A stretch of DNA of 62,807 bases, counting the filler, from Nitrospinota bacterium (GTDB taxonomy: Bacteria; JAUXIQ01): NCBI GenBank assembly GCA_030620925.1. It is 9 parts of 9 records of this genome, joined end to end, with 100 filler letters (N's around TTAATTAATTAA, not from the genome) between each part and the next. Parts side by side here need not be neighbours in the genome. Positions count along the whole stretch, not along the records: positions 54,084 to 62,807 come from JAUXIQ010000061.1; 8 more parts are not named here. The stretch is one strand, 5' to 3'. The position numbers and the translations under genes were made by a program. The notes beneath the pieces are model-generated. The model saw only the letters and a program-made list of their open reading frames with translations. It searched no databases and was not told the DNA's origin. Positions 3,329 to 62,807 of the stretch are shown piece after piece (the stretch's first letter is position 1; each line of letters begins with the position of its first letter).

Positions 3329-4843
3329 GTGAACAAGCGTGACGTAAAGTCTTTCTACCCGCCGCCCACCATGGCCACCCAGCACCCGGACAACGCAGCA
3401 CCCCCCTATTGGGGAAAGGAGGCTTACTTTACGGCGGAAGAAGAAGTTGAAGAGTGTTACCGATGTTTCAAAGAGCTCGGCTGCCGGGAATATATGTGGG
3501 ACTGGGAAGGGAAATACGTTGACGAGGCTGCCGCCGACAAGCTGCTGACCCAGTATACCAGCTTCTTCAAGCGTCACCCCCTGGGCGGTGAATTTTTCCT
3601 CACCATCCGGGTGCCTAACATCTGGTTCGAAAAAACAACCCGCACCGCCCGCGCCTTCATGTCCGTGACCACGGCACAGGATATCGCCCTTGAGCTCGAT
3701 CTTCCCGAAGCCCCCGTCTTCCAGATCATTCTCCCCATGGCGGAAAGGGCGGAAATGATGGTGGAAGTGCAGAGTAAATACAGCGAGGTCATAAAGGCCA
3801 AGTGCGTCGCCTTTCAGTCGGACCTGTGCGGGCCGCTGGAAGTAGAGATAATCCCCCTGGTGGAGGATGTGGACCGGTTGATGAACATGGGAGAAATCCT
3901 TGAAGATTACTGCCAACAGTTGAAGAGCAAGCAGAATTCGGTGAGGGGCTTCATCGCCCGTTCAGACCCCTCTCTGCAACACGGTCTGGTGCCTGCTGTA
4001 CTGGCGGCCAAGGTCGCTGTCAATGAACAATACCTCTTCCAAAAGAAAGAGGGCATGCCCGTCTATCCCATGATCGGAGTGGGCTCACTTCCCTTCAGGG
4101 GCGGGCTGACCCCCTACAGGTGTAAAGAGTTTCTGAAAGAATACAAGGGAATCAGGACGGTGACCCTGCAGTCAGCCTTCCGCTACGACTATCCCCTGGC
4201 GGATGTGAAAAAGGCCGTGCGTTACTTGAACAGGGAACTGAGCGGCGCGGCGGAGATCACGCCCGACCCGCTGGATAAAGAGCTCGCGGCCGAGCTCAAC
4301 CATCTGTTCTCTCCCCTTTACCGCAAGACGATCGAAAGCATCTCGCCCCTCATAAACTCCACCTCCGGACATATCCCCGCCCGCAGGGAGAGGATATCAG
4401 AAACGGGCCCACTGGGCTACGCCAGGAGCATGGGGCGTAAAAGCCTCCCCCGCGGGGTGAAATTTACCGCATCCCTCTATTCCCTGGGAATCCCGCCGGA
4501 GATAATAGGCACCGGAAGGGGCCTCAAAGCGGCCGCCTCGGCGGGACTTCTCGATCACCTCAAAAAGGTCTACGTGAACCTCCACCACGACCTCAAGACA
4601 GCCGGTAGCTATTTGAACCTTGAGAACCTGGCCTTTTTAGCCGCATCGCATCCGGCGCTGCACGATGTGGAAGAGGATGCAGCCCTGGTGGAAGAATACC
4701 TGGGCCTCAAGCTGGAACCGACCGAGCTGCACCATTTCCTGCACCGCAACCATGTTTCAAACATCTATCACCTGCAGGGAGCGGGGGAAAATTTCGATAG
4801 CGAAGTGATCGCCGCTGCGCTCTGCCGCCGTAGCTTGGGATGA
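3329..4843 (+). CDS. ppcA: Archaeal-type phosphoenolpyruvate carboxylase
   Basis: MATQHPDNA, EYMWDWEGK, FLTIRVPN, ILPM, IIPLVED, FIARSDP, IGVGSLPFRG, TLQSAFRYD, YSLGIPPE and C-terminal RRSLG; about 500 aa. Confidence 0.92.
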   Translation: MNKRDVKSFYPPPTMATQHPDNAAPPYWGKEAYFTAEEEVEECYRCFKELGCREYMWDWEGKYVDEAAADKLLTQYTSFFKRHPLGGEFFLTIRVPNIWFEKTTRTARAFMSVTTAQDIALELDLPEAPVFQIILPMAERAEMMVEVQSKYSEVIKAKCVAFQSDLCGPLEVEIIPLVEDVDRLMNMGEILEDYCQQLKSKQNSVRGFIARSDPSLQHGLVPAVLAAKVAVNEQYLFQKKEGMPVYPMIGVGSLPFRGGLTPYRCKEFLKEYKGIRTVTLQSAFRYDYPLADVKKAVRYLNRELSGAAEITPDPLDKELAAELNHLFSPLYRKTIESISPLINSTSGHIPARRERISETGPLGYARSMGRKSLPRGVKFTASLYSLGIPPEIIGTGRGLKAAASAGLLDHLKKVYVNLHHDLKTAGSYLNLENLAFLAASHPALHDVEEDAALVEEYLGLKLEPTELHHFLHRNHVSNIYHLQGAGENFDSEVIAAALCRRSLG

Positions 4844-20075: not shown

Positions 20076-23000
20076 CAGGCGGCCAAGCCGGAAGGACTGG
20101 ACGAATTGATCCGTCTCCTGGCCGAGCATGCGGAAGCACCGGCGGATGAGGAAGCGCTTATCCCGTCCGCGGAGCTATCTGGCGACGATGGCGGCGATAG
20201 TGCAGATACGGGGATTTCCGGGCCGGAAGCCGATTCAGACTTTTCAACCGAGCCCGAAGAGGAGCCAGTGAGTGAAGAAGCCCCACCCCCTGCCTCGGAG
20301 CCGCTTAAAGAAGGTACTGATACTGAGTTCGTGCCCAAAGGAGCGGACCTTGAACTTATGGAAGAGTACGTAGCCGAGTGCCGGGAGTATATCGAGGGGG
20401 CCGAGGAAGGGCTTCGTTTACTCGAAGAAAGCCCCAACGACGAGGATGCAGTCGACACAGTATTCCGCGCCTTCCATACCATTAAGGGGACTTCCGCTTT
20501 CCTCAGGCTCTCCATTGTATCGGAGTTGGCCGATGTAGCGGAATCATATATGAGCCGCATCCGCAATGGTGAAATTCCTTTCACCGGTGTACATGCAGAG
20601 CTGGCTCAACGGTCCGCAAGCGTGCTTAAGATGCTCATTCAAGCCATCGAAGACTCCCTGGCCGGTGGTCAGGCCTCCAGGCCTGAGGGCCTTGAAGAGT
20701 TGATGCAACTTCTGGCCGAGCCGGGGAAAGAGCCAAAGCCGGAACCCGAAGAAGATTTTTTCCCACTTGTAGAGCCGGCGGTAGAAATTACCCATATAGA
20801 TTCCCTGCCGGAAGATGTTGACACGGAGCTTCTGACGGACTTCATCGCCGAGAGCCGAGATAATATCCAGAATGCCGAAGAAGCACTACTCATTCTTGAA
20901 GAAGCCCCCGAGAATATGGATGCACTCAACAAAGTGCTTCGTGCCTTTTACACTATCAGAGGGACTTCTGATTTCTTTGGGCTCTCAAACATATATGAGT
21001 TGGCTAATGGAGTAGAAATTCTCATAAGCCGCATCCGCGATCGTGAAATTTACTATACCGGTGGATGCGCAGACCTGGCTCTCCGTTCGGTGGATATGAT
21101 CAAGAGGCTTCTCCATGCCGTTGAGGAAGCCATAAACGGCTCCCCGCTGGTCAGGCCCGTGGGCCTGGACGATTTGTTGCGTCTCCTGGACGTGGTTGAG
21201 AGGGAGCCGGAACAGGATGATTCCCCATATCCCATCGTGGAGCCAATTCAGGATACCCCGTTTACAGAGTTCCTGCTTGAAGACGTTGACCCCAGTCTCA
21301 TTACTGACTTCATCAGCGAGTGCAGCGAATATATGCAGGACGCGGATGAAGCACTACAAGCTCTGGAAAGCAACCCAGAGGATATGGAAGCCGTCAACAC
21401 CGTTTTTCGTGCCTTCCATACCATCAAAGGAACTTCCACTTTCCTGAAGCTCTCAACCATATCAGAGCTGGCACATGGGGCGGAAACTCTCCTGGACCGA
21501 ATTCGGTCCCGTGAAATATCCTGCACAGGAACGTACGCAGACCTTACCCTTCGGTCCGCAGAGATGCTCAAGGGACTCCTTCGGGCCGTGCAGGAAGACA
21601 TGGGCAGCGGTCTTGAGACCAAGCCGGAGGGTCTTTATGAATTGATGCGCCTCCTGGCCGAACCGGAGGAAGAGCTTGTACGGGATGATTTTGCCTATCC
21701 CCTTGTGGAGCCGGCTCCGGAGCTGCCAACAACGGAATTCCTGCCGGAAGATGCTGACCCGAACCTCCTGGCCGATTTCCTCACCGAGAGTCGTGAGTAT
21801 ATCCAGGAGGCCGAAGCCGCCCTGCTGGTTCTTGAAAATGACCCCCAGGATATGGATTCGGTCAACAACATATTCCGCGCCTTTCATACCATCAAAGGGA
21901 CTTCCTCTTTCTTGGGGCTTACTACCATATCAGACTTTTCTCATGGAGCGGAAACGCTCCTTAGCCGCATCCGCGACTCTGAATTACCCTGCAAGGGCAA
22001 GTATGCAGACCTCGTCCTTCGTTCTTTAGATATGCTTATGGAGCTCCTTCAGGCCGTGCATAACGCTATGGGCGAAGACCAGGTTATCAAGCCGGAGGGC
22101 CTGGAAAGGCCGGAAGGTCTCGATGAATTGATGTACCTCCTGGTTGAGGCGGAGAAGGAGCCGACTTGGGAAATAACCGCCGACACCGGCGCAGCGCCTG
22201 TTGACGACGGATCATATTCCGTATTCCTGCCCGATGGTGCCGATCCGAACCTCCTGTCGGATTTCCTCACCGAGAGCCGTGAGTATATTCAGGACGCTGA
22301 GGCGGCTCTGCTTTCTCTTGAAACAGAGACCGACGACATGGATGCCGTCGATACTGTATTTCGGGCGTTTCACACCATCAAAGGGACGTCCGCTTTCCTG
22401 GGCCTCAATCTCATAACTGAGCTCGCCCACGGGGCGGAATCCTTCCTCAGCCGAATCCGAGACCGCGAAATACCATGCAGCGGAGGGTACGCAGACCTCG
22501 CCCTTCGCTCTGTGGATATGCTCAAGGAACTCCTCCAGACCGTTCAGGATGCCATGGGCGGGGAGCGTGTTCCGAGACCTGACGGCTTATACGATTTGAT
22601 GCGTCTCCTGGCGGAGCCGGAGGCGGAGGGTATAAGCGGTGAATACGATATGATGACAAGAGGCGGTATGCCTCGCCTGGGGGATATCCTGGTTGCCGAG
22701 GGCAAAGCCAGCCGAGAGGATGTAGAGTCGGCCATTATGGATCAGGGCGACCAGCCGTTAGGTGTTGCGATGTTGAGGTCGCAAGCCGCATCCTTGACAG
22801 ATATCGCCAAGGCCCTGAGAACTCAGCAGGGGATAAAGAGCAAAAGGACCACGGGGGATTCCTCGGTGCGGGTGCGCACCGACCGTCTTGACAATCTCAT
22901 AGAAATGGTGAGTGAGCTGGTAATAGCCCACTCCATGGTCGCCCAGGATGAAACTGTCATCAGCGACGGACAACACGATCTATTGAAGAAGGTATCGCAA

Positions 23001-24146
23001 GCGGGTAAGACCGTTCGCGAATTACAAGATTTAAGTATGTCTATGAGGATGGTCCCCTTTAAGGCCACCTTCCAGAAGATGACCAGGCTGGTCAGGGACC
23101 TCTCTCACAAGAGCGGTAAGATGGTCAACTTCCTAGCCGAGGGCGAGGAGACCGAGATCGACCGCCACATGGTGGATGCCATCAACGATCCCCTGGTACA
23201 CATGATCAGAAACGCCCTGGACCATGGCATAGAAACTCCCGGAATTCGGGAGAAAAATGGAAAGCCGCGGGAGGGGAGCCTCAGGCTGGCGGCGTATCAT
23301 GCAGGCGGCAACGTGGTGGTAGAGGTCAGTGATGACGGCAGGGGACTCAACAAGGGGAAGATAGTTGAAAAAGCCATCTCCAAAGGGTTGATAGACTCTG
23401 ATAAAGGTATGTCGGACACCGATATTTACAACCTGATTTTCGAGCCCGGATTTTCCACCGCAGAAAGGGTGACCGACGTTTCGGGCAGAGGCGTGGGGAT
23501 GGACGTGGTAAAGAAGGGCATTGAATCCTTGAGGGGGCGCAGCGAGCTCATCTCGGAAGAAGGCCAGGGATGCACCTTAAGGATGCGTCTGCCGCTCACC
23601 CTGGCCATTACTGACGGAATGCTGGTTAAAGTCGGCGAACAGCGCTACATAATACCCACGATCAGCATATATATGTCAATCCGGCCCGAAAAGGATACAA
23701 TTCACAGCGTTATCGGCAAGGGCGAGATGGTGCTGTTCAGGGATGAGCTAATACCCGTTTTCAGGCTCCATCAAATGTTAGATATAGAGGGAGCGGTAAA
23801 TGACTCCAGCGAAGGTCTTCTGGTTATCCTTCAAGAAGGAGAAAGACACTGCGCTCTGCTCGTTGACGCATTGCTGGGGCAGCAGCAGGTTGTTGCCAAG
23901 CCTATGGGAGTCGGCATCGGTAAAGTAGACGGCTTCTCCGGCGCAGCGATTCTGGGAGACGGCCGTGTCGGGCTTATTATAGACCCCATTGAAATACTTT
24001 CCCTGGCAAGGCAGCATGTGGGATCCGGCAATTATAGAGGCCGAGCTGCCGGTAATGGACGAGAGGAGGGAGCTGAGCAGATAACGGCTGAGGAGACGAC
24101 CGACCAACCGGAGGCTGAGAAAGAAGGCCGGGAGGTAAAATCGTGA
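20076..24146 (+). CDS. cheA: Chemotaxis histidine kinase CheA with multiple Hpt domains; 5' truncated
   Basis: Five repeats of FRAF(H/Y)TI(K/R)G, dimerisation VRVRTDRLD, HATPase HMIRNALDHG, DDGRG, FEPGFST, SGRGVGMDVV, LPLTLAI and a CheW domain. The frame is open to the contig edge. Confidence 0.95.
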   Translation, partial: QAAKPEGLDELIRLLAEHAEAPADEEALIPSAELSGDDGGDSADTGISGPEADSDFSTEPEEEPVSEEAPPPASEPLKEGTDTEFVPKGADLELMEEYVAECREYIEGAEEGLRLLEESPNDEDAVDTVFRAFHTIKGTSAFLRLSIVSELADVAESYMSRIRNGEIPFTGVHAELAQRSASVLKMLIQAIEDSLAGGQASRPEGLEELMQLLAEPGKEPKPEPEEDFFPLVEPAVEITHIDSLPEDVDTELLTDFIAESRDNIQNAEEALLILEEAPENMDALNKVLRAFYTIRGTSDFFGLSNIYELANGVEILISRIRDREIYYTGGCADLALRSVDMIKRLLHAVEEAINGSPLVRPVGLDDLLRLLDVVEREPEQDDSPYPIVEPIQDTPFTEFLLEDVDPSLITDFISECSEYMQDADEALQALESNPEDMEAVNTVFRAFHTIKGTSTFLKLSTISELAHGAETLLDRIRSREISCTGTYADLTLRSAEMLKGLLRAVQEDMGSGLETKPEGLYELMRLLAEPEEELVRDDFAYPLVEPAPELPTTEFLPEDADPNLLADFLTESREYIQEAEAALLVLENDPQDMDSVNNIFRAFHTIKGTSSFLGLTTISDFSHGAETLLSRIRDSELPCKGKYADLVLRSLDMLMELLQAVHNAMGEDQVIKPEGLERPEGLDELMYLLVEAEKEPTWEITADTGAAPVDDGSYSVFLPDGADPNLLSDFLTESREYIQDAEAALLSLETETDDMDAVDTVFRAFHTIKGTSAFLGLNLITELAHGAESFLSRIRDREIPCSGGYADLALRSVDMLKELLQTVQDAMGGERVPRPDGLYDLMRLLAEPEAEGISGEYDMMTRGGMPRLGDILVAEGKASREDVESAIMDQGDQPLGVAMLRSQAASLTDIAKALRTQQGIKSKRTTGDSSVRVRTDRLDNLIEMVSELVIAHSMVAQDETVISDGQHDLLKKVSQAGKTVRELQDLSMSMRMVPFKATFQKMTRLVRDLSHKSGKMVNFLAEGEETEIDRHMVDAINDPLVHMIRNALDHGIETPGIREKNGKPREGSLRLAAYHAGGNVVVEVSDDGRGLNKGKIVEKAISKGLIDSDKGMSDTDIYNLIFEPGFSTAERVTDVSGRGVGMDVVKKGIESLRGRSELISEEGQGCTLRMRLPLTLAITDGMLVKVGEQRYIIPTISIYMSIRPEKDTIHSVIGKGEMVLFRDELIPVFRLHQMLDIEGAVNDSSEGLLVILQEGERHCALLVDALLGQQQVVAKPMGVGIGKVDGFSGAAILGDGRVGLIIDPIEILSLARQHVGSGNYRGRAAGNGREEGAEQITAEETTDQPEAEKEGREVKS

Positions 24147-53983: not shown

Positions 53984-54083
53984 NNNNNNNNNNNNNNNNN
54001 NNNNNNNNNNNNNNNNNNNNNNNNNNNTTAATTAATTAANNNNNNNNNNNNNNNNNNNNNNNNNNNNNNNNNNNNNNNNNNNN
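53984..54083. other. Artificial contig linker
   Basis: 44 N + TTAATTAATTAA + 44 N. Confidence 0.97.
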
Positions 54084-55519
54084 CCGTTCGGGAAAATATT
54101 TTCCTCCGCCAGGTCTATCTGTTCCCTGAGCAGCGTCTCCCTCTTTCGCAGGCTTTTCATGAGTTTCGTCTCGAACTTCCTTACCCGCTCCTCCACGGAG
54201 CCGATGGTTTTATCCAGGGCGTCAGAGAGCGTGGGGTCCAGCGCGGCTACATCTTCCCTTATCTCGCCCAGTAGACCGCCAACGGCAGCCACCCGCTCAT
54301 CCCAGAACGAGGGGGAAGTGAGGCTGTGTCTGGACCTTATCAGCCTATCCAGCAGCTTCCCTTTATCCCTGAATTCTAGAGGGTGCACGTCCAGTTTCCC
54401 CAGGACGCGGCGCACTCTGGGCTCCACCAGAGTCAGGCCCATGCGCAATCGTACGTGGGGCATGGGCAGGCCGAAATAATCGTAGACCTGCCGTAGCTGC
54501 GCATAATATCCCGTTTCCCCCGCCCCTCCCACGTAGGCGATCACCGGGAAAAGGTAGTCGGACACGATTGGCCTGAGGGCAGCGTTGGGGCTGAAACGCT
54601 CAGGCTCCGCTTCGGCCATGGCCCTAAGCTCCGGCCCGCTGAACTTCCGACCGGAGCAGAGAAAACCCTCGCCCTGCAACCGCACGTTTTCCCTCACCCC
54701 TCCGTTGATGAGAAAGAAGGGACACAACTCTTCCGACTTGTGTATTTGTCTCCGATAGCCGGATGCTTCAAGCTCATCGCCGGCGTGGTTCAGAAGTTCG
54801 GTGACCATCAACGGCTTATCCAGCACCTTCTGGAACAGCGGCGAGGCCAGTCTCTTCAGCGCCGCCCCCGTGGGGTCTATCATAACCAGCCCATAATCGC
54901 CCATGAGACCGGTCATCAATCTCGCAAACCAGTCTCCCAGGCTGAGCGATTTCTCAAATGACGCTGTAAGGTGAGCCTCTACCTCCTCGCTGAAACCACC
55001 ATCCGGCAGTGCGTCCAGGAAGCGACTGAGGAACAGACGAACGTTCTCATCGAGGGGGATCGAACCCACGGGACCCCCGCCCTTTCCCATCTCAGCCGGG
55101 AGCTTCGTGCGAAGGGGTTTCCCGCTTTGGTCCAGCGTATGGACGGCGGCGATTTCTTCAAAGTCATGGTCATCGGTAGCGGCCCAAAACGCCGGGATCA
55201 CCGCCCTCCCCAACTCTTCCCTCAACCGGTCCGCAAGCTGAACGGCGGTCAACGCCTTGTATATGGTATACAGCGGACCGGTGAGCACGCCCGGCTGCTG
55301 GCCGGTCATGACCATCAGGGCGTTCTCTTCCCCCACACGGCGTATATTATCCAGGGCCGCTTCCGGCGCGCCCAGGCTCCGGTTATATTCCATAAGCGCC
55401 GCCGTCGTCTCGTTCCTGTCAGGCCTCTGTACCTCATCCACAGCTTCACAAAGGTTCCCCGTACTTAATGGAGAGAAAAATCGGAGGGCCCTTTCTTCTC
55501 CCTGGAGGTAATCCCTCAC
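54084..55519 (-). CDS. bshC: Bacillithiol biosynthesis cysteine-adding enzyme BshC, 3' truncated
   Basis: TGQQPGVLTGPLYTIYK, FWAATDDHDFEEI, PERFSPNAALRP, YVGGAGE..YYAQ. Real start may be upstream (see findings). Confidence 0.9.
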
Positions 55520-58565: not shown

Positions 58566-59840
58566 ATGGAAACGACAACTGCCGAAATGATGAACCTCGC
58601 AGAGCTTAAGGAAAGGACTATTTCAGAACTCTCAACGGTAGCCAAGGAAATGGGTATCCCTGCTATCAGCGGACTCAAGAAGCAGGAACTCATCTTTAAA
58701 ATATTGGAAACCCAGGCCCAGAAAAACGGGCTCATCTTCGGCGAGGGTGTGCTTGAAATACTGCCCGACGGGTTCGGCTTCCTGCGCGCACCTTCCTCCA
58801 ACTATTTGCCCGGACCGGACGACATTTACGTGTCCCCATCGCAGATACGGCGTTTCGATCTGCGGACAGGCGATACAATATCAGGGCAGATACGCCCTCC
58901 CAAGGACAGCGAGCGTTACTTCGCCCTCCTCAAAGTAGAAGCTATAAATTTCGATAACCCCGAACTGGCCAAAGAGAAAATCCTGTTCGATAACCTAACG
59001 CCCCTGTTCCCCGACGAATGCATAAATCTGGAAACCAAGGACGGTAACCTCTCCACCCGCATCATGAACCTCATGACGCCCATAGGGAAAGGGCAGCGCG
59101 GCCTCATAGTCGCCCCGCCCAGGACAGGCAAGACCATGCTGTTGCAGGCAATCGCCAACAGCATCTCCGAGAACCAGCCGGAAGTAATACTCATCGTGCT
59201 CCTCATCGATGAGCGCCCGGAAGAAGTTACGGAAATGCAGCGCTCAGTGAATGGCGAAGTGATAAGCTCCACCTTCGACGAGCCGGCGCAACGCCACACC
59301 CAGGTCGCCGACATGGTCCTGGAAAAGGCCAAGCGGCTCACGGAATACGGAAAGGATGTGGTAATACTCCTGGATAGTATTACCAGGCTGGCCAGGGCTC
59401 ATAACACCATCGTTCCACCCAGCGGCAAGGTGCTCTCAGGGGGTATAGACTCCAATGCCCTGCAGCGGCCGAAGCGTTTTTTCGGTGCGGCCCGTAACAT
59501 CGAAGAAGGGGGGAGCCTTACCATCATCGCCACCGCACTCATCGATACCGGCAGCCGTATGGACGACATAATCTTCGAAGAATTCAAGGGCACCGGTAAC
59601 CTGGAGATACATCTGGACAGGAAGCTGGCCGACAAGAGGGTCTTCCCGGCCATTGACATCCATCGGTCCGGAACGAGGAAGGAAGAGCTGCTGATGGAGG
59701 AAAAAGAGCTGCAACGAGTTTGGGTCCTGAGGAAAGTGCTTCATACCCTGGGAGTCGTGGATTCCATGGAGCTGTTGATAGACAAGATATCCCAGACAAA
59801 ATCCAATACCAATTTCCTGGATTCCTTAAACGACCTTTAG
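58566..59840 (+). CDS. rho: Transcription termination factor Rho
   Basis: [56 protein letters not shown]. Confidence 0.99.
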
Positions 59841-60115
59841 CTGACATAGCCGATGCCCGAAGCTCGCATCGGAACCTGGAATCATTTCAGCGTCCCTTCC
59901 TGCGCACCTCTTTTTAAGGCGCATCCTTTATTTTTTCCTTTTAATCTCATACAGATGGGGAATATAATAGTTTCGCATAGGCTTGTTCATGCCTGAAAGA
60001 GGGTAGTCGAGGGAGGAATACGCTTGACTGCCGTTTTTTTGTCCTTATGATAACATAGGTCTATATTTCTCTAATGAGAAGAGTTGTCAGGGCGCAAATC
60101 GAGGAGTGAAATCAG

Positions 60116-60362: not shown

Positions 60363-61907
60363 ATGGGCGGCAGGGAAGAAGAGAAGGAATGGCCCCTCTA
60401 CTTCAAGGATTGCCTCTCCATGGGGAACCCGGAGAGCAGCGTGGGCATCTGCACCCTGTGGACAAAGCAGGAGAGGGTCCGAACCCATATAGACGGCAGC
60501 CTCTATTCCGTGCTGGGTAACCTCTACTCCTCGGACGGAATAAACTACCTCCTGCGGAACCTCCTGGCCAACCCGCAGATCAGGCACATCGTGCTCTGCG
60601 GAATGGACGTCACCGGAAGCGGCGAGGCGCTTGTACTTCTTTTTAACCAGGGTATAGACGAAAAGCGACAAATAAAGGGAACAGAAGCCGTTATAGATGA
60701 TAATCTTCCAGATTATGCAATTAAACTGGTTAGAGAAAGGGTGCAGTTAACAGACTTACGCGGGCCAATCCGGGAAGATAAGCTTATTGAGTCAATCAAT
60801 ATTTTTGCCAAGATAGAAAAAATAGAGAAAAAGATAGAACCGCTATACTTCCCCGACCCGGAGCCGCATGCTGAGGTTTACCCCGATCACGACAACGCGA
60901 GGGTAATAAGGGCCCGCCACGTGGTGGAGGCGTGGGTGAAGATAGTGGACGAAGTGATGACCTTCGGCCGGGTCGAAAAGACCGAGCACTCCATAAACCA
61001 GAAGGAGTTATTAAACCTGGCTACGGTGATCACCGATGAGGACCCTGATAAAATAATTTATAAACCCTGGCTCCCTTTTTCACTGGAGCATCTCGAGGGA
61101 CATGCGGGCGGAAACACCCCGGAAGAAGAAGTCTGGCTCCAGTACAAGCTGCCTCTACGAGACCACTACTCGGGGGAAGAAATAGGAGGAAAACACGGTT
61201 ACTACGAGCAGATGGCTTTCACCAGGGAGCTTCCCGACTTGAGCTACACATACGGGCAGCGACTCTGGGATTACAGGGGAGAGAACCAGATTTTCGCCAT
61301 GGTGGAAAGGCTCAAGGAGGCGCTCCACAGCAGGCGGGCGGTGGCCGTCCTCTGGGACCCGGAGCAGGACGCCAATTCTAATAGCCCGCCCTGCCTGAAC
61401 ATCTTGCAGGCGACGGTTCGCGGAGAGAAACTCCATCTCACCGCCTATTTCAGGAGCCACGACGTCTTCCGCGCCTGGCCGGAAAACGCTTTCGCCCTGC
61501 GCAAAATGCAAAAGTTCCTGGCAGGGAGAGTGGAGATAAAGGCCCTGGGAGACCTAACCATCTTTTCGCAGTCGGCACACATCTATGAAGACTGCTGGTC
61601 CAAGGCCAGTGAAATACTTAAGGAGAGACGCCGGGAGTTCAAAAGAGGGAAATATTTTCAGAGAGACGCCAGGGGCAACTTCGTGATAAGGCTGGAAGAG
61701 GGCCTCATCCGCATTTTCCACTACTCGCCCCAGGGTAACCTTATTAATACATTCGAAGGCAAAAGCGCCGACGAGCTGCTCGAGGCCCTGGAGCCGTACA
61801 TATCCCTCACGGGCCATGCGCTCTACCTGGGCAAGGAAATAGCCAGGGCGGAAGCGGCGCTAAAATTACAAATAGAATATCGCCAGGATGGGGACTTTCC
61901 GGCATGA
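60363..61907 (+). CDS. Fusion of an MtrA-like domain, a thymidylate synthase/hydroxymethylase domain and a DUF4346-like domain
   Basis: N-terminal [29 protein letters not shown] (MtrA-like); central YTYGQRL, SRRAV, PPCL, FRSHD..WPEN, SAHIY (TS fold); C-terminal [23 protein letters not shown]. Confidence 0.82.
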
Positions 61908-61938: not shown

Positions 61939-62807
61939 ATGCTGGAAAAGCTTCAGCAGAGAGAAGAGAGGTTCGAAGAGCTGAACCGCCTCATGAGCGA
62001 CGCCGATACGCTCTCCAAGCCCGAGGAGTATAAGAAACTGGCCAAGGAACACGCCGAACTCTCGGAGACGGTAAACCTCTACCGGAGCTTGAAAAAGGTC
62101 AGCAAGGAGATGGAAGACTCCCGGGAACTCATGGATAGCGGTGACGCAGAGCTCGAAGCGCTGGCCAAAGAGGAGCTGGCCCTCCTGGAGGAAGAAGAAA
62201 ACAGGCTTCAACAAGAGCTTCGCCTCCTTCTGCTGCCTAAAGACAGTCTGGGCGACAAAAACGTCATGGTAGAGATACGTGCGGGTACAGGCGGCGACGA
62301 GGCCTGCCTCTTCGCGGCAGACCTTTTCAGGATGTACACCAAATACGCCGAGAGCCAGGGCTGGCGCACCGAACTCATGAGCCAGAACCTCACCGCCCTG
62401 GGCGGAATAAAAGAAGTCATCGCTCTTGTTGAGGGCAAAGGGGCTTACAGCAAGCTCAAATATGAAAGCGGCACGCACCGCGTTCAGCGGGTCCCGACAA
62501 CGGAAACATCGGGCAGGGTGCATACCTCCGCCGTCACCGTGGCCATCCTCCCCGAGGCGGAAGAAGTCGACGTGGAAATAAAGCCCGAAGAAATCCGTGT
62601 AGACGTATTCCGGTCCACCGGGCCCGGCGGGCAGAGCGTGAACACCACCGACTCCGCGGTGAGGATAACCCATTTACCGACCGGTCTGGTGGTATCGTGC
62701 CAGGACGAAAAATCGCAGCATAAAAATAAGGCCAAGGCGCTCAAGGTCCTGCGGGCCAGGCTGCTGGATACCATCCAGCAGGAACAGCAGAAAGAACGAG
62801 CGCATAC
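61939..62807 (+). CDS. prfA: Peptide chain release factor 1, truncated by the window edge
   Basis: Not in the ORF track because it has no stop. From ATG 61939: [22 protein letters not shown] (PxT anticodon), GPGGQSVN. Confidence 0.96.

Follow-up and report, generated by a model that had tools for sequence, protein, structure and literature searches.

We report that a gene between rpmE and prfA in a Nitrospinota bacterium (assembly GCA_030620925.1) encodes a 514-residue fusion protein (P0001) in which a short thymidylate synthase core lies between an MtrA-like domain and a DUF4346 domain, and that this family acts as the cell's thymidylate synthase, as judged from its near-perfect complementarity with ThyX and from its gene neighbours. 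All positions refer to the stretch of 62,807 nucleotides of that assembly that was analysed (the window; feature coordinates in Table 1). Making thymidylate is an essential process and a classic drug target, with two classes of enzyme, ThyA and ThyX, described in textbooks; the fusion is a third architecture, which stands alone as thymidylate synthase in a sixth of the cyanobacteria sampled and is present in many Chloroflexota, CPR bacteria and DPANN archaea as well, and it carries two conserved extra domains, one of them derived from a vitamin-B12 protein. All three domains (MtrA, Thymidylat_synt and PterinBD-DUF4346) score above the curated Pfam cut-offs, and the full-length structure model is confident (pLDDT 87.2, pTM 0.82).

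We think it probable that the protein is a housekeeping thymidylate synthase of classical ThyA-class chemistry whose accessory module holds a ligand or a one-carbon carrier. By this scheme Cys344 would attack C6 of dUMP, a methylene-tetrahydropterin (folate, in a bacterium) would give both the carbon and the hydride, and the products would be dTMP and a dihydropterin that a separate reductase would recycle. The short ThyA-class core would sit inserted in the MtrA-like/DUF4346 module, whose probable task is to bind a ligand, or to keep the one-carbon carrier in place for a core without the usual folate-pocket residues.

Distribution and thymidylate synthase core

The strongest evidence that the fusion makes dTMP is phyletic, and at the level of the family it supports the claim well. 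We searched an even sample of 301 Cyanobacteriota genomes, taken without correction for phylogeny and without completeness figures, and found a PF00303 match in 57: a canonical ThyA (265-358 aa) in 6, a fusion-type frame (496-576 aa) that also contains a DUF4346 match in 50, and a 383-aa partial frame in one (G217). ThyX is present in 245 of the 301 genomes, that is, in 244 of the 251 non-carriers and in a single one of the 50 genomes with the fusion (G213), and canonical ThyA is found in none of the 50; the fusion is the sole candidate synthase in 49 of them (Fisher p = 1.5e-47 for fusion against ThyX, with genomes treated as independent). One genome (G123) has neither a PF00303 nor a ThyX match, as deduced from gaps in both lists. 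Five further carrier genomes agree, with the fusion as the only PF00303 match in 5/5, ThyX in 0/5 and PF00186 in 0/5.

The initial annotation had proposed that this gene displaced thyX as the housekeeping synthase and that profiling would show mutual exclusion with thyA, thyX and folA. The role as housekeeping synthase is upheld by these counts, and exclusion holds for thyX (1/50 overlap) and thyA (0/50) but fails for folA, which is enriched with the fusion (see below). A carrier that also encodes canonical thyA or thyX occurs once in the 50, namely G213 with its ThyX. That genome (locus L106) has an intact 502-aa fusion together with ThyX and FolA, and G217 has ThyX beside its partial frame; these are the only 2 of the 301 genomes with ThyX plus a fusion-type frame, and they may be snapshots of replacement under way.

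Gene neighbours point the same way. Flanking open reading frames (ORFs) were clustered in 91 fusion loci and one representative of each cluster was checked against Pfam. Four families top the neighbour counts, dCTP deaminase and dCMP deaminase with 14 loci each, thymidylate kinase with 13 and dUTPase with 7, and the fusion is flanked by one or more of them in 34 of the 91 loci. The two deaminases and dUTPase supply dUMP, and thymidylate kinase consumes dTMP. No folate, dihydrofolate reductase (DHFR) or cobalamin uptake or synthesis gene occurs among the 16 most frequent neighbour clusters. The near-perfect complementarity of ThyX and fusion, taken with these neighbours, argues that the fusion is the cell's thymidylate synthase. 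In one relative (P0372, 733 aa) the MtrA-like, thymidylate synthase and DUF4346 domains are followed by a C-terminal dCMP deaminase, which joins dUMP supply to the tri-domain fusion within a single chain.

The family is large and widespread in many bacteria and archaea. At least 460 protein clusters are related to the full-length fusion at E <= 0.001, and nearly all of the 120 relatives listed have the same three Pfam domains; similar fusions had been expected in databases, and they are there in number. The matches listed carry source labels such as Chloroflexota, Patescibacteria, KSB1 and Chloroflexales, and among them the closest relatives share 71% and 65% identity, the others at most 47%. 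At least 577 fusion loci were confirmed on metagenome contigs (577 of 588 candidate stretches), and matches among GTDB representative genomes come from Woesearchaeota, Cyanobacteriota and one metagenome-assembled genome (MAG) labelled Gracilibacteria. When a phylum-level search was centred on this last genome (G005, Candidatus Gracilibacteria, 6.0 Mb), the genomes obtained were those of the Cyanobacteriota centre G004, and the label of G005 looks wrong or its bin mixed. The N-terminal domain searched alone matches 710 clusters at 50% identity (E <= 0.001), and in DPANN archaea an MtrA-like match is found in 40 of 201 sampled genomes, in frames of 315-810 aa of which 27 fall at 443-572 aa. As the initial annotation had also supposed, no functional characterisation of the family was found in the literature searched, subscription journals and supplements lying outside its reach.

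Residue equivalences in the core were taken from an alignment of the fusion and family members to a canonical 264-aa ThyA from genome G093, and conservation was counted in an alignment of 62 members. Numbers given for ThyA are those of the E. coli enzyme, the R21 and E58 motifs of the aligned protein falling at those numbers. PF00303 matches residues 287-427 (62 bits against a cut-off of 24.3) over model positions 84-230 of 266, and the best NCBIfam model is TIGR03283 (thy_syn_methano; residues 181-413, 157 bits). This bears out the likeness to short archaeal-type synthases seen earlier; the 157 bits fall short of the equivalog cut-off (174.55), so that TIGR03283 is the closest family but the fusion core is not an equivalog member. 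The catalytic motifs picked out in the initial annotation (the PPCL cysteine, RSxD, the WPEN asparagine and HIY) are all present and alignable to canonical ThyA: Cys344 stands at the position of Cys146, R364-S365-x-D367 at R166/S167/D169, Asn375 at Asn177 (invariant, 62/62) and H406-I-Y408 at H207/Y209. The SRR pair R324/R325 likewise corresponds to R126/R127, and Y297 to Y94. Most of these catalytic residues are invariant; the exceptions are R325 and D367, each conserved in 90% or more of the members. Asp367 occupies the place of Asp169, the residue that binds the pterin ring in ThyA structures. Only the C-terminal half of the core aligns with canonical ThyA, and R21 lies outside the aligned part. 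The insertion at residues 249-275 is lineage-specific.

Comparison of folds raises the question of whether the core makes dTMP at all, since it might instead be a pyrimidine hydroxymethylase or hydroxylase that produces a modified nucleotide. Its closest structure is the flavin-dependent dCMP monooxygenase 9iqc (Z 22.2, rmsd 2.0 over 202 residues), followed by the CMP hydroxymethylase MilA (Z 20.5), and both outscore true thymidylate synthases (Z 17-18.6). We nevertheless regard such a function as extremely unlikely. A sequence search of the Protein Data Bank (PDB) with the core ranks true thymidylate synthases at the top, with 9iqc missing from the 60 entries listed. Asn375 is invariant where dCMP-specific enzymes would be expected to have Asp, an expectation with which the title of entry 6l18, 'T4dCH D179N', agrees. 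The genomic data also speak for a synthase of dTMP, given the fusion's standing as sole candidate in 49 of the 50 carrier cyanobacteria, neighbours that supply dUMP and consume dTMP, and a housekeeping operon setting rather than a phage or antibiotic cluster.

The accessory module

The N-terminal domain is unmistakably related to MtrA. PF04208 matches residues 5-135 (55.3 bits against a cut-off of 25, E 8e-15), the sequence matches 5LAA at E 4.6e-14, and the modelled domain superposes on the cobalamin-bound MtrA homologue 5laa_B with Z 20.0 and rmsd 2.0 over 147 residues (28% identity), the next unrelated fold reaching Z 7 only. In the structural report on MtrA by Wagner et al., His84 ligates cobalt and is hydrogen-bonded to Glu54, a GAIPF/Y-x-EN meander forms part of the site, and the nucleotide tail is held by D17, T53, G57 and N64 of the M. 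fervidus homologue (PMC4915002). Aligned with 5LAA, the fusion has VTGS--GE in place of VQGHivGQ at the cobalt-ligand loop, which is two residues shorter and without the His, as the initial annotation had noticed; the alignment has a deletion at Glu54, and the meander reads EAVID--DN, again with two residues missing. A His is found at the ligand site in 4 of the 62 family members and is missing in the other 58. Equivalents of the tail pocket are D16 (28/62), S56 (60/62), G59 (62/62) and N66 (56/62), so that by alignment this pocket seems partly retained in the N-terminal domain, a retention that falls short of showing binding. Four residues (Y55, G59, R65, G97) are invariant and four more (D82, S86, R124, D131) almost so, and the domain is therefore not simply a decayed MtrA. 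No other Mtr family of the MtrA-H membrane complex was found in a Pfam scan of 46 window ORFs.

The C-terminal domain, called DUF4346-like in the initial annotation, is confirmed as such by PF14251 (PterinBD-DUF4346; residues 435-509, 55.1 bits against a cut-off of 29.6). Modelled by itself with 43 aligned sequences, it gives a confident structure (pLDDT 91.1), for which no convincing solved relative was found, the best matches (Z 6.2) being ribosomal proteins and PH/EVH1-like folds; a Protein Atlas search with this domain gave no usable match. H485, G490, E492 and Q508 are invariant, and D435, R437, E497, Y506 and D509 nearly so. The domain also aligns to the C-terminal part of the TIGR00284 model (archaeal DHPS-like proteins). 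When the N-terminal domain (1-175) and the C-terminal domain (430-514) were predicted together as two chains, the score was 0.00 in two runs, which is evidence neither way.

Some PF14251 match occurs in 128 of the 301 Cyanobacteriota genomes, the strongest mostly in small open frames and in genomes of either synthase type. Stand-alone cyanobacterial DUF4346 proteins have about 127-158 aa (loci L093-L104), and their presence is independent of the genome's thymidylate synthase type. The Pfam name of the family may hint at a pterin ligand, but no pterin or folate gene lies beside these stand-alone copies in the 10 loci scanned, where a TPM_phosphatase gene is a neighbour in 5 and FemAB-like genes in 3.

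The two flanking domains also occur together without the core. Among the best 150 matches to the N-terminal domain, 26 proteins were scanned against Pfam (24 of 234-409 aa and two longer), and in three of these, P0258 (248 aa), P0276 (273 aa) and P0301 (282 aa), the MtrA-like domain is followed directly by DUF4346. These two-domain proteins also lack the MtrA His. In P0262, P0278 and P0308 (about 395 aa) the two domains are separated by some 180 residues that match no Pfam family, PF00303 included, and that show none of the thymidylate synthase catalytic motifs in the alignment; these proteins look like fusions with a decayed core. A comparable 388-aa open frame without a PF00303 match is found at G130:C11:81834-82073, in a genome that has ThyX. 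The remaining proteins scanned are MtrA-only (probably fragments), truncated fusions or chimeras. A word-index search for short stand-alone forms of the N-terminal domain gave 6 matches, all of them fragments of fusions, and it was the exhaustive search that gave the two-domain forms. Because such forms exist, the core is best seen as inserted into a pre-existing MtrA-like/DUF4346 module.

A different partnership may exist in Pirellulales MAGs (L011:5128-6648 and L012:1551-3044), where a stand-alone 296-aa gene resembling thymidylate synthase (PF00303, E 4.9e-10) begins 1-4 nt past a 200-209-aa ORF without a Pfam match. The pair looks translationally coupled and may be another split arrangement of partners; a riboflavin synthase (Lum_binding) gene lies divergently upstream of it in L011.

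Given its ancestry, the MtrA-like domain could bind a cobamide in a His-off state, or with a ligand from DUF4346 such as His485, and dUMP bound in the core would receive a methyl group or reducing power from it. The closeness of fold and sequence to cobalamin-bound MtrA, the tail-pocket residues kept, the His that 4 of 62 members have at the ligand site and the invariant His of DUF4346 are all consistent with such a corrinoid route. We judge it very unlikely, for the His84-Glu54 dyad and the meander, as set out in PMC4915002, are missing here and in 58 of 62 members. The closest two-domain forms are without the His as well, the 16 most frequent neighbour clusters hold no cobalamin uptake or synthesis gene, and the association of the fusion with FolA agrees with classical chemistry. 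The partly kept tail pocket and the many invariant polar residues make it probable that the module has some ligand to bind, or that it keeps the one-carbon carrier in place.

FolA and the fate of dihydrofolate

A classical synthase releases dihydrofolate, and the same 301 genomes were therefore searched for bona fide FolA (PF00186 at E <= 1e-30). Such a FolA occurs in 8 of the 50 genomes with the fusion, in 4 of the 6 canonical-ThyA genomes and in 5 of the 244 ThyX genomes without a full-length fusion (in one of these five the FolA is split in two), an odds ratio for fusion against ThyX of 9.1 (p = 2.7e-4, relatedness ignored). FolA thus accompanies the fusion much as it does ThyA, as would be expected of an enzyme that releases dihydrofolate, and from this we infer classical release of dihydropterin.

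Weaker PF00186 matches, in frames of about 177-204 aa, occur in 10 more of the 50 carriers and in 4 of the 244 ThyX genomes, and 32 of the 50 carriers have no PF00186 match at all. Nine of the 10 carriers with a weak match belong to the fusion subgroup with the weakest thymidylate synthase domain scores. The one such match that was checked, G161:C1:6054200-6055300 (L118), is a 170-aa protein of the RibD_C/DHFR superfamily, which may be the lineage's dihydrofolate reductase or merely a clade marker. In cyanobacterial genomes with both genes on one contig FolA never adjoins the fusion, unlike the canonical thyA-folA pair, which is adjacent in G295.

The initial annotation had gone further and suggested a self-contained synthase, in which the MtrA-like domain and DUF4346 would provide the reducing step, or reduce the dihydropterin again on the enzyme, so that FolA is not needed. 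Independence of a separate FolA has precedents in ThyX and in the protozoan DHFR-TS fusions. PF00186 is absent from the five further carrier genomes and true FolA from 42 of the 50 fusion cyanobacteria, the Rossmann-type N-terminal domain retains nucleotide-pocket residues, and polar residues are invariant in both accessory domains. A flavin-using enzyme of the thymidylate synthase fold also exists, and it is the nearest structure to the core (9iqc, Z 22.2; described in PMC13326640). Yet the absence of FolA beside the fusion is uninformative, because most cyanobacteria lack it (239 of the 244 with ThyX; present in 5/244), so that absence is the norm of the phylum, and the roughly 9-fold enrichment with the fusion is the pattern of a dihydrofolate producer, the weak RibD_C/DHFR-type matches (10/50 carriers against 4/244) leaning the same way. 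In the protein itself no DHFR domain (PF00186 at E <= 1) or redox motif was detected by Pfam scan, nor any DHFR, flavin or NAD(P) family by Pfam and NCBIfam, and the accessory module is also found without a thymidylate synthase domain. FolA-independent chemistry is therefore unsupported and mildly contradicted, and we consider a self-contained synthase unlikely.

Several results weigh against the scheme that we favour. The positions of ThyA L172, G173 and F176, which line the folate pocket in the canonical enzyme, are held in the fusion by R370, A371 and E374 (W372 is invariant), so the cofactor pocket is not canonical; the closest structure to the core is the flavin-dependent 9iqc; and the two accessory domains are rich in invariant polar residues, which hints at a role that is not merely passive. 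The 42 fusion cyanobacteria without true FolA need another reductase or another chemistry, and the FolA and ThyX statistics treat related genomes as independent. Evidence for a sole synthase comes from relatives, and a second synthase or a FolA may be encoded outside the window in this bacterium. Enzymatic function is predicted for all members of the family, and the archaeal short-type synthases are themselves poorly characterised.

These points leave room for a wider proposal, improbable in our view, in which the module carries a cofactor (a His-off corrinoid or another nucleotide-tailed one, perhaps ligated by His485) and delivers a one-carbon unit or hydride to dUMP. If true, thymidylate would be made in a third manner in Chloroflexota, CPR bacteria, DPANN archaea, about 1/6 of the sampled cyanobacteria and this bacterium. 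The classical chemistry that we favour would itself raise two questions: by what means a short archaeal-type core accommodates its one-carbon carrier, and what recycles dihydrofolate in the many carriers without FolA. Since several carrier genomes are each assembled as one contig of megabase scale, there may be cultured strains with the fusion, in which case complementation and enzymology would be feasible. The co-occurrence of the fusion with ThyX and FolA in cyanobacteria is what is new here; new chemistry is so far without support.

Genomic setting and comparison with known systems

The fusion gene lies where the initial annotation placed it, with rpmE upstream, prfA downstream and rho further upstream (Table 1). 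It begins 37 nt downstream of rpmE and ends about 31 nt upstream of the likely prfA start; the prfA frame is open from 61888, and the ATG at 61939, with an AAGGAG motif in front, is the likelier start. A promoter-like site precedes rpmE, no terminator-like site on the + strand was found in the gap between rpmE and the fusion or in that between the fusion and prfA, and one weak terminator consensus match falls inside the fusion ORF. To judge from these sequence signals, the fusion gene is probably co-transcribed with rpmE and prfA. In 107 other loci (91 of them with a fusion-family ORF) neither rpmE, prfA nor rho was found nearby.

Table 1. Positions in the window of the fusion gene, its parts and neighbouring features, and of three other genes
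Feature	Position	Strand	Description
rho, transcription termination factor	58566-59840	+	Rho_N, Rho_RNA_bind and ATP-synt_ab domains
Promoter-like site	60024-60051		upstream of rpmE
rpmE, ribosomal protein L31	60116..60325	+	69 aa; named from its translation and the initial annotation, without Pfam scan
Whole fusion ORF (P0001)	60363..61907	+	514 aa, single uninterrupted frame; tri-domain thymidylate synthase
MtrA-like Rossmann domain without cobalt-ligating His	60375..60839	+	residues ~5-159; PF04208
Weak terminator consensus match	60617-60632	+	inside fusion ORF
Thymidylate synthase catalytic domain, short archaeal type	60903..61658	+	residues ~181-432; TIGR03283, PF00303 and fold matches
Insertion in catalytic domain, predicted disordered	61107..61187	+	residues ~249-275; pLDDT < 50; not in other aligned members
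Codon of catalytic nucleophile, Cys344 (P-P-C-L)	61392..61394	+	invariant 62/62; aligns with PPCH Cys of canonical ThyA
DUF4346 domain, three strands then two helices	61665..61889	+	residues 435-509; PF14251, E 1.3e-14
prfA, peptide chain release factor 1	61939..62805, off window end	+	PCRF and RF-1 domains
PEP carboxylase, archaeal type	3329-4843	+	PF14010
CheA	20106-24146	+	1346 aa, five Hpt domains
BshC homologue, bacillithiol synthesis	54032-55519	-	

The window contains 704 N, and its GroEL shares 77-78% identity with proteins labelled Nitrospinae, Syntrophaceae and Thermodesulfobacteriota. This places the host, an uncultured anaerobe, in the neighbourhood of these groups, and its standing as a deltaproteobacterium is not certain.

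Of known enzymes, the short-type methanogen synthase (TIGR03283) is the nearest to the fusion core, with which it shares the short thymidylate synthase fold and the ThyA catalytic residues. Its model covers about 200 positions in a single domain, whereas the core described here is flanked by the MtrA-like and DUF4346 domains, belongs to a bacterial host and, in this member, carries the disordered insertion as an extra. With canonical ThyA (EC 2.1.1.45, E. coli and L. casei) the fusion has in common the fold (Z 17-18.6), the Cys, the Arg/Ser/Asp/Asn/His/Tyr set and the paired Arg, which in canonical ThyA reaches across the dimer interface, as well as the exclusion of ThyX and the association with FolA. 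It differs at the L172, G173 and F176 positions and by the two extra domains, and whereas the free C-terminus of canonical ThyA closes the active site, the fusion chain runs on into DUF4346.

MtrA (5LAA, 5L8X) and the N-terminal domain share the Rossmann-type fold, the NP.IR and VLCG motifs and part of the tail pocket; the fusion has neither His84, Glu54 nor a membrane anchor, its meander is shorter, and it is joined to a nucleotide enzyme. The DHFR-TS proteins of protozoa and plants are likewise single chains of similar length with an N-terminal Rossmann-type domain, and they rank first in a whole-chain Foldseek search, but the chains superpose badly over their whole length (TM 0.33-0.35, rmsd > 21 A), the N-terminal domain of the fusion is MtrA-like and without PF00186, and its thymidylate synthase lies mid-chain rather than at the end.

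The phage flavin-dependent dCMP hydroxylases (9IQC, 9IQU; RB69 gp48 and DLP3 gp80) have a short thymidylate synthase fold like that of the fusion core. According to their description they act on dCMP with flavin and O2, and one branch within the superfamily of thymidylate synthases has moved from folate to flavin (PMC13326640). The fusion differs in having Asn375, which indicates a uracil substrate, where T4 dCMP hydroxymethylase has an acidic residue that specifies cytosine, and its phyletic pattern demands a dTMP-forming role; invariant Asn375 and conserved Asp367, together with the phyletic and context data, argue for methylation of dUMP.

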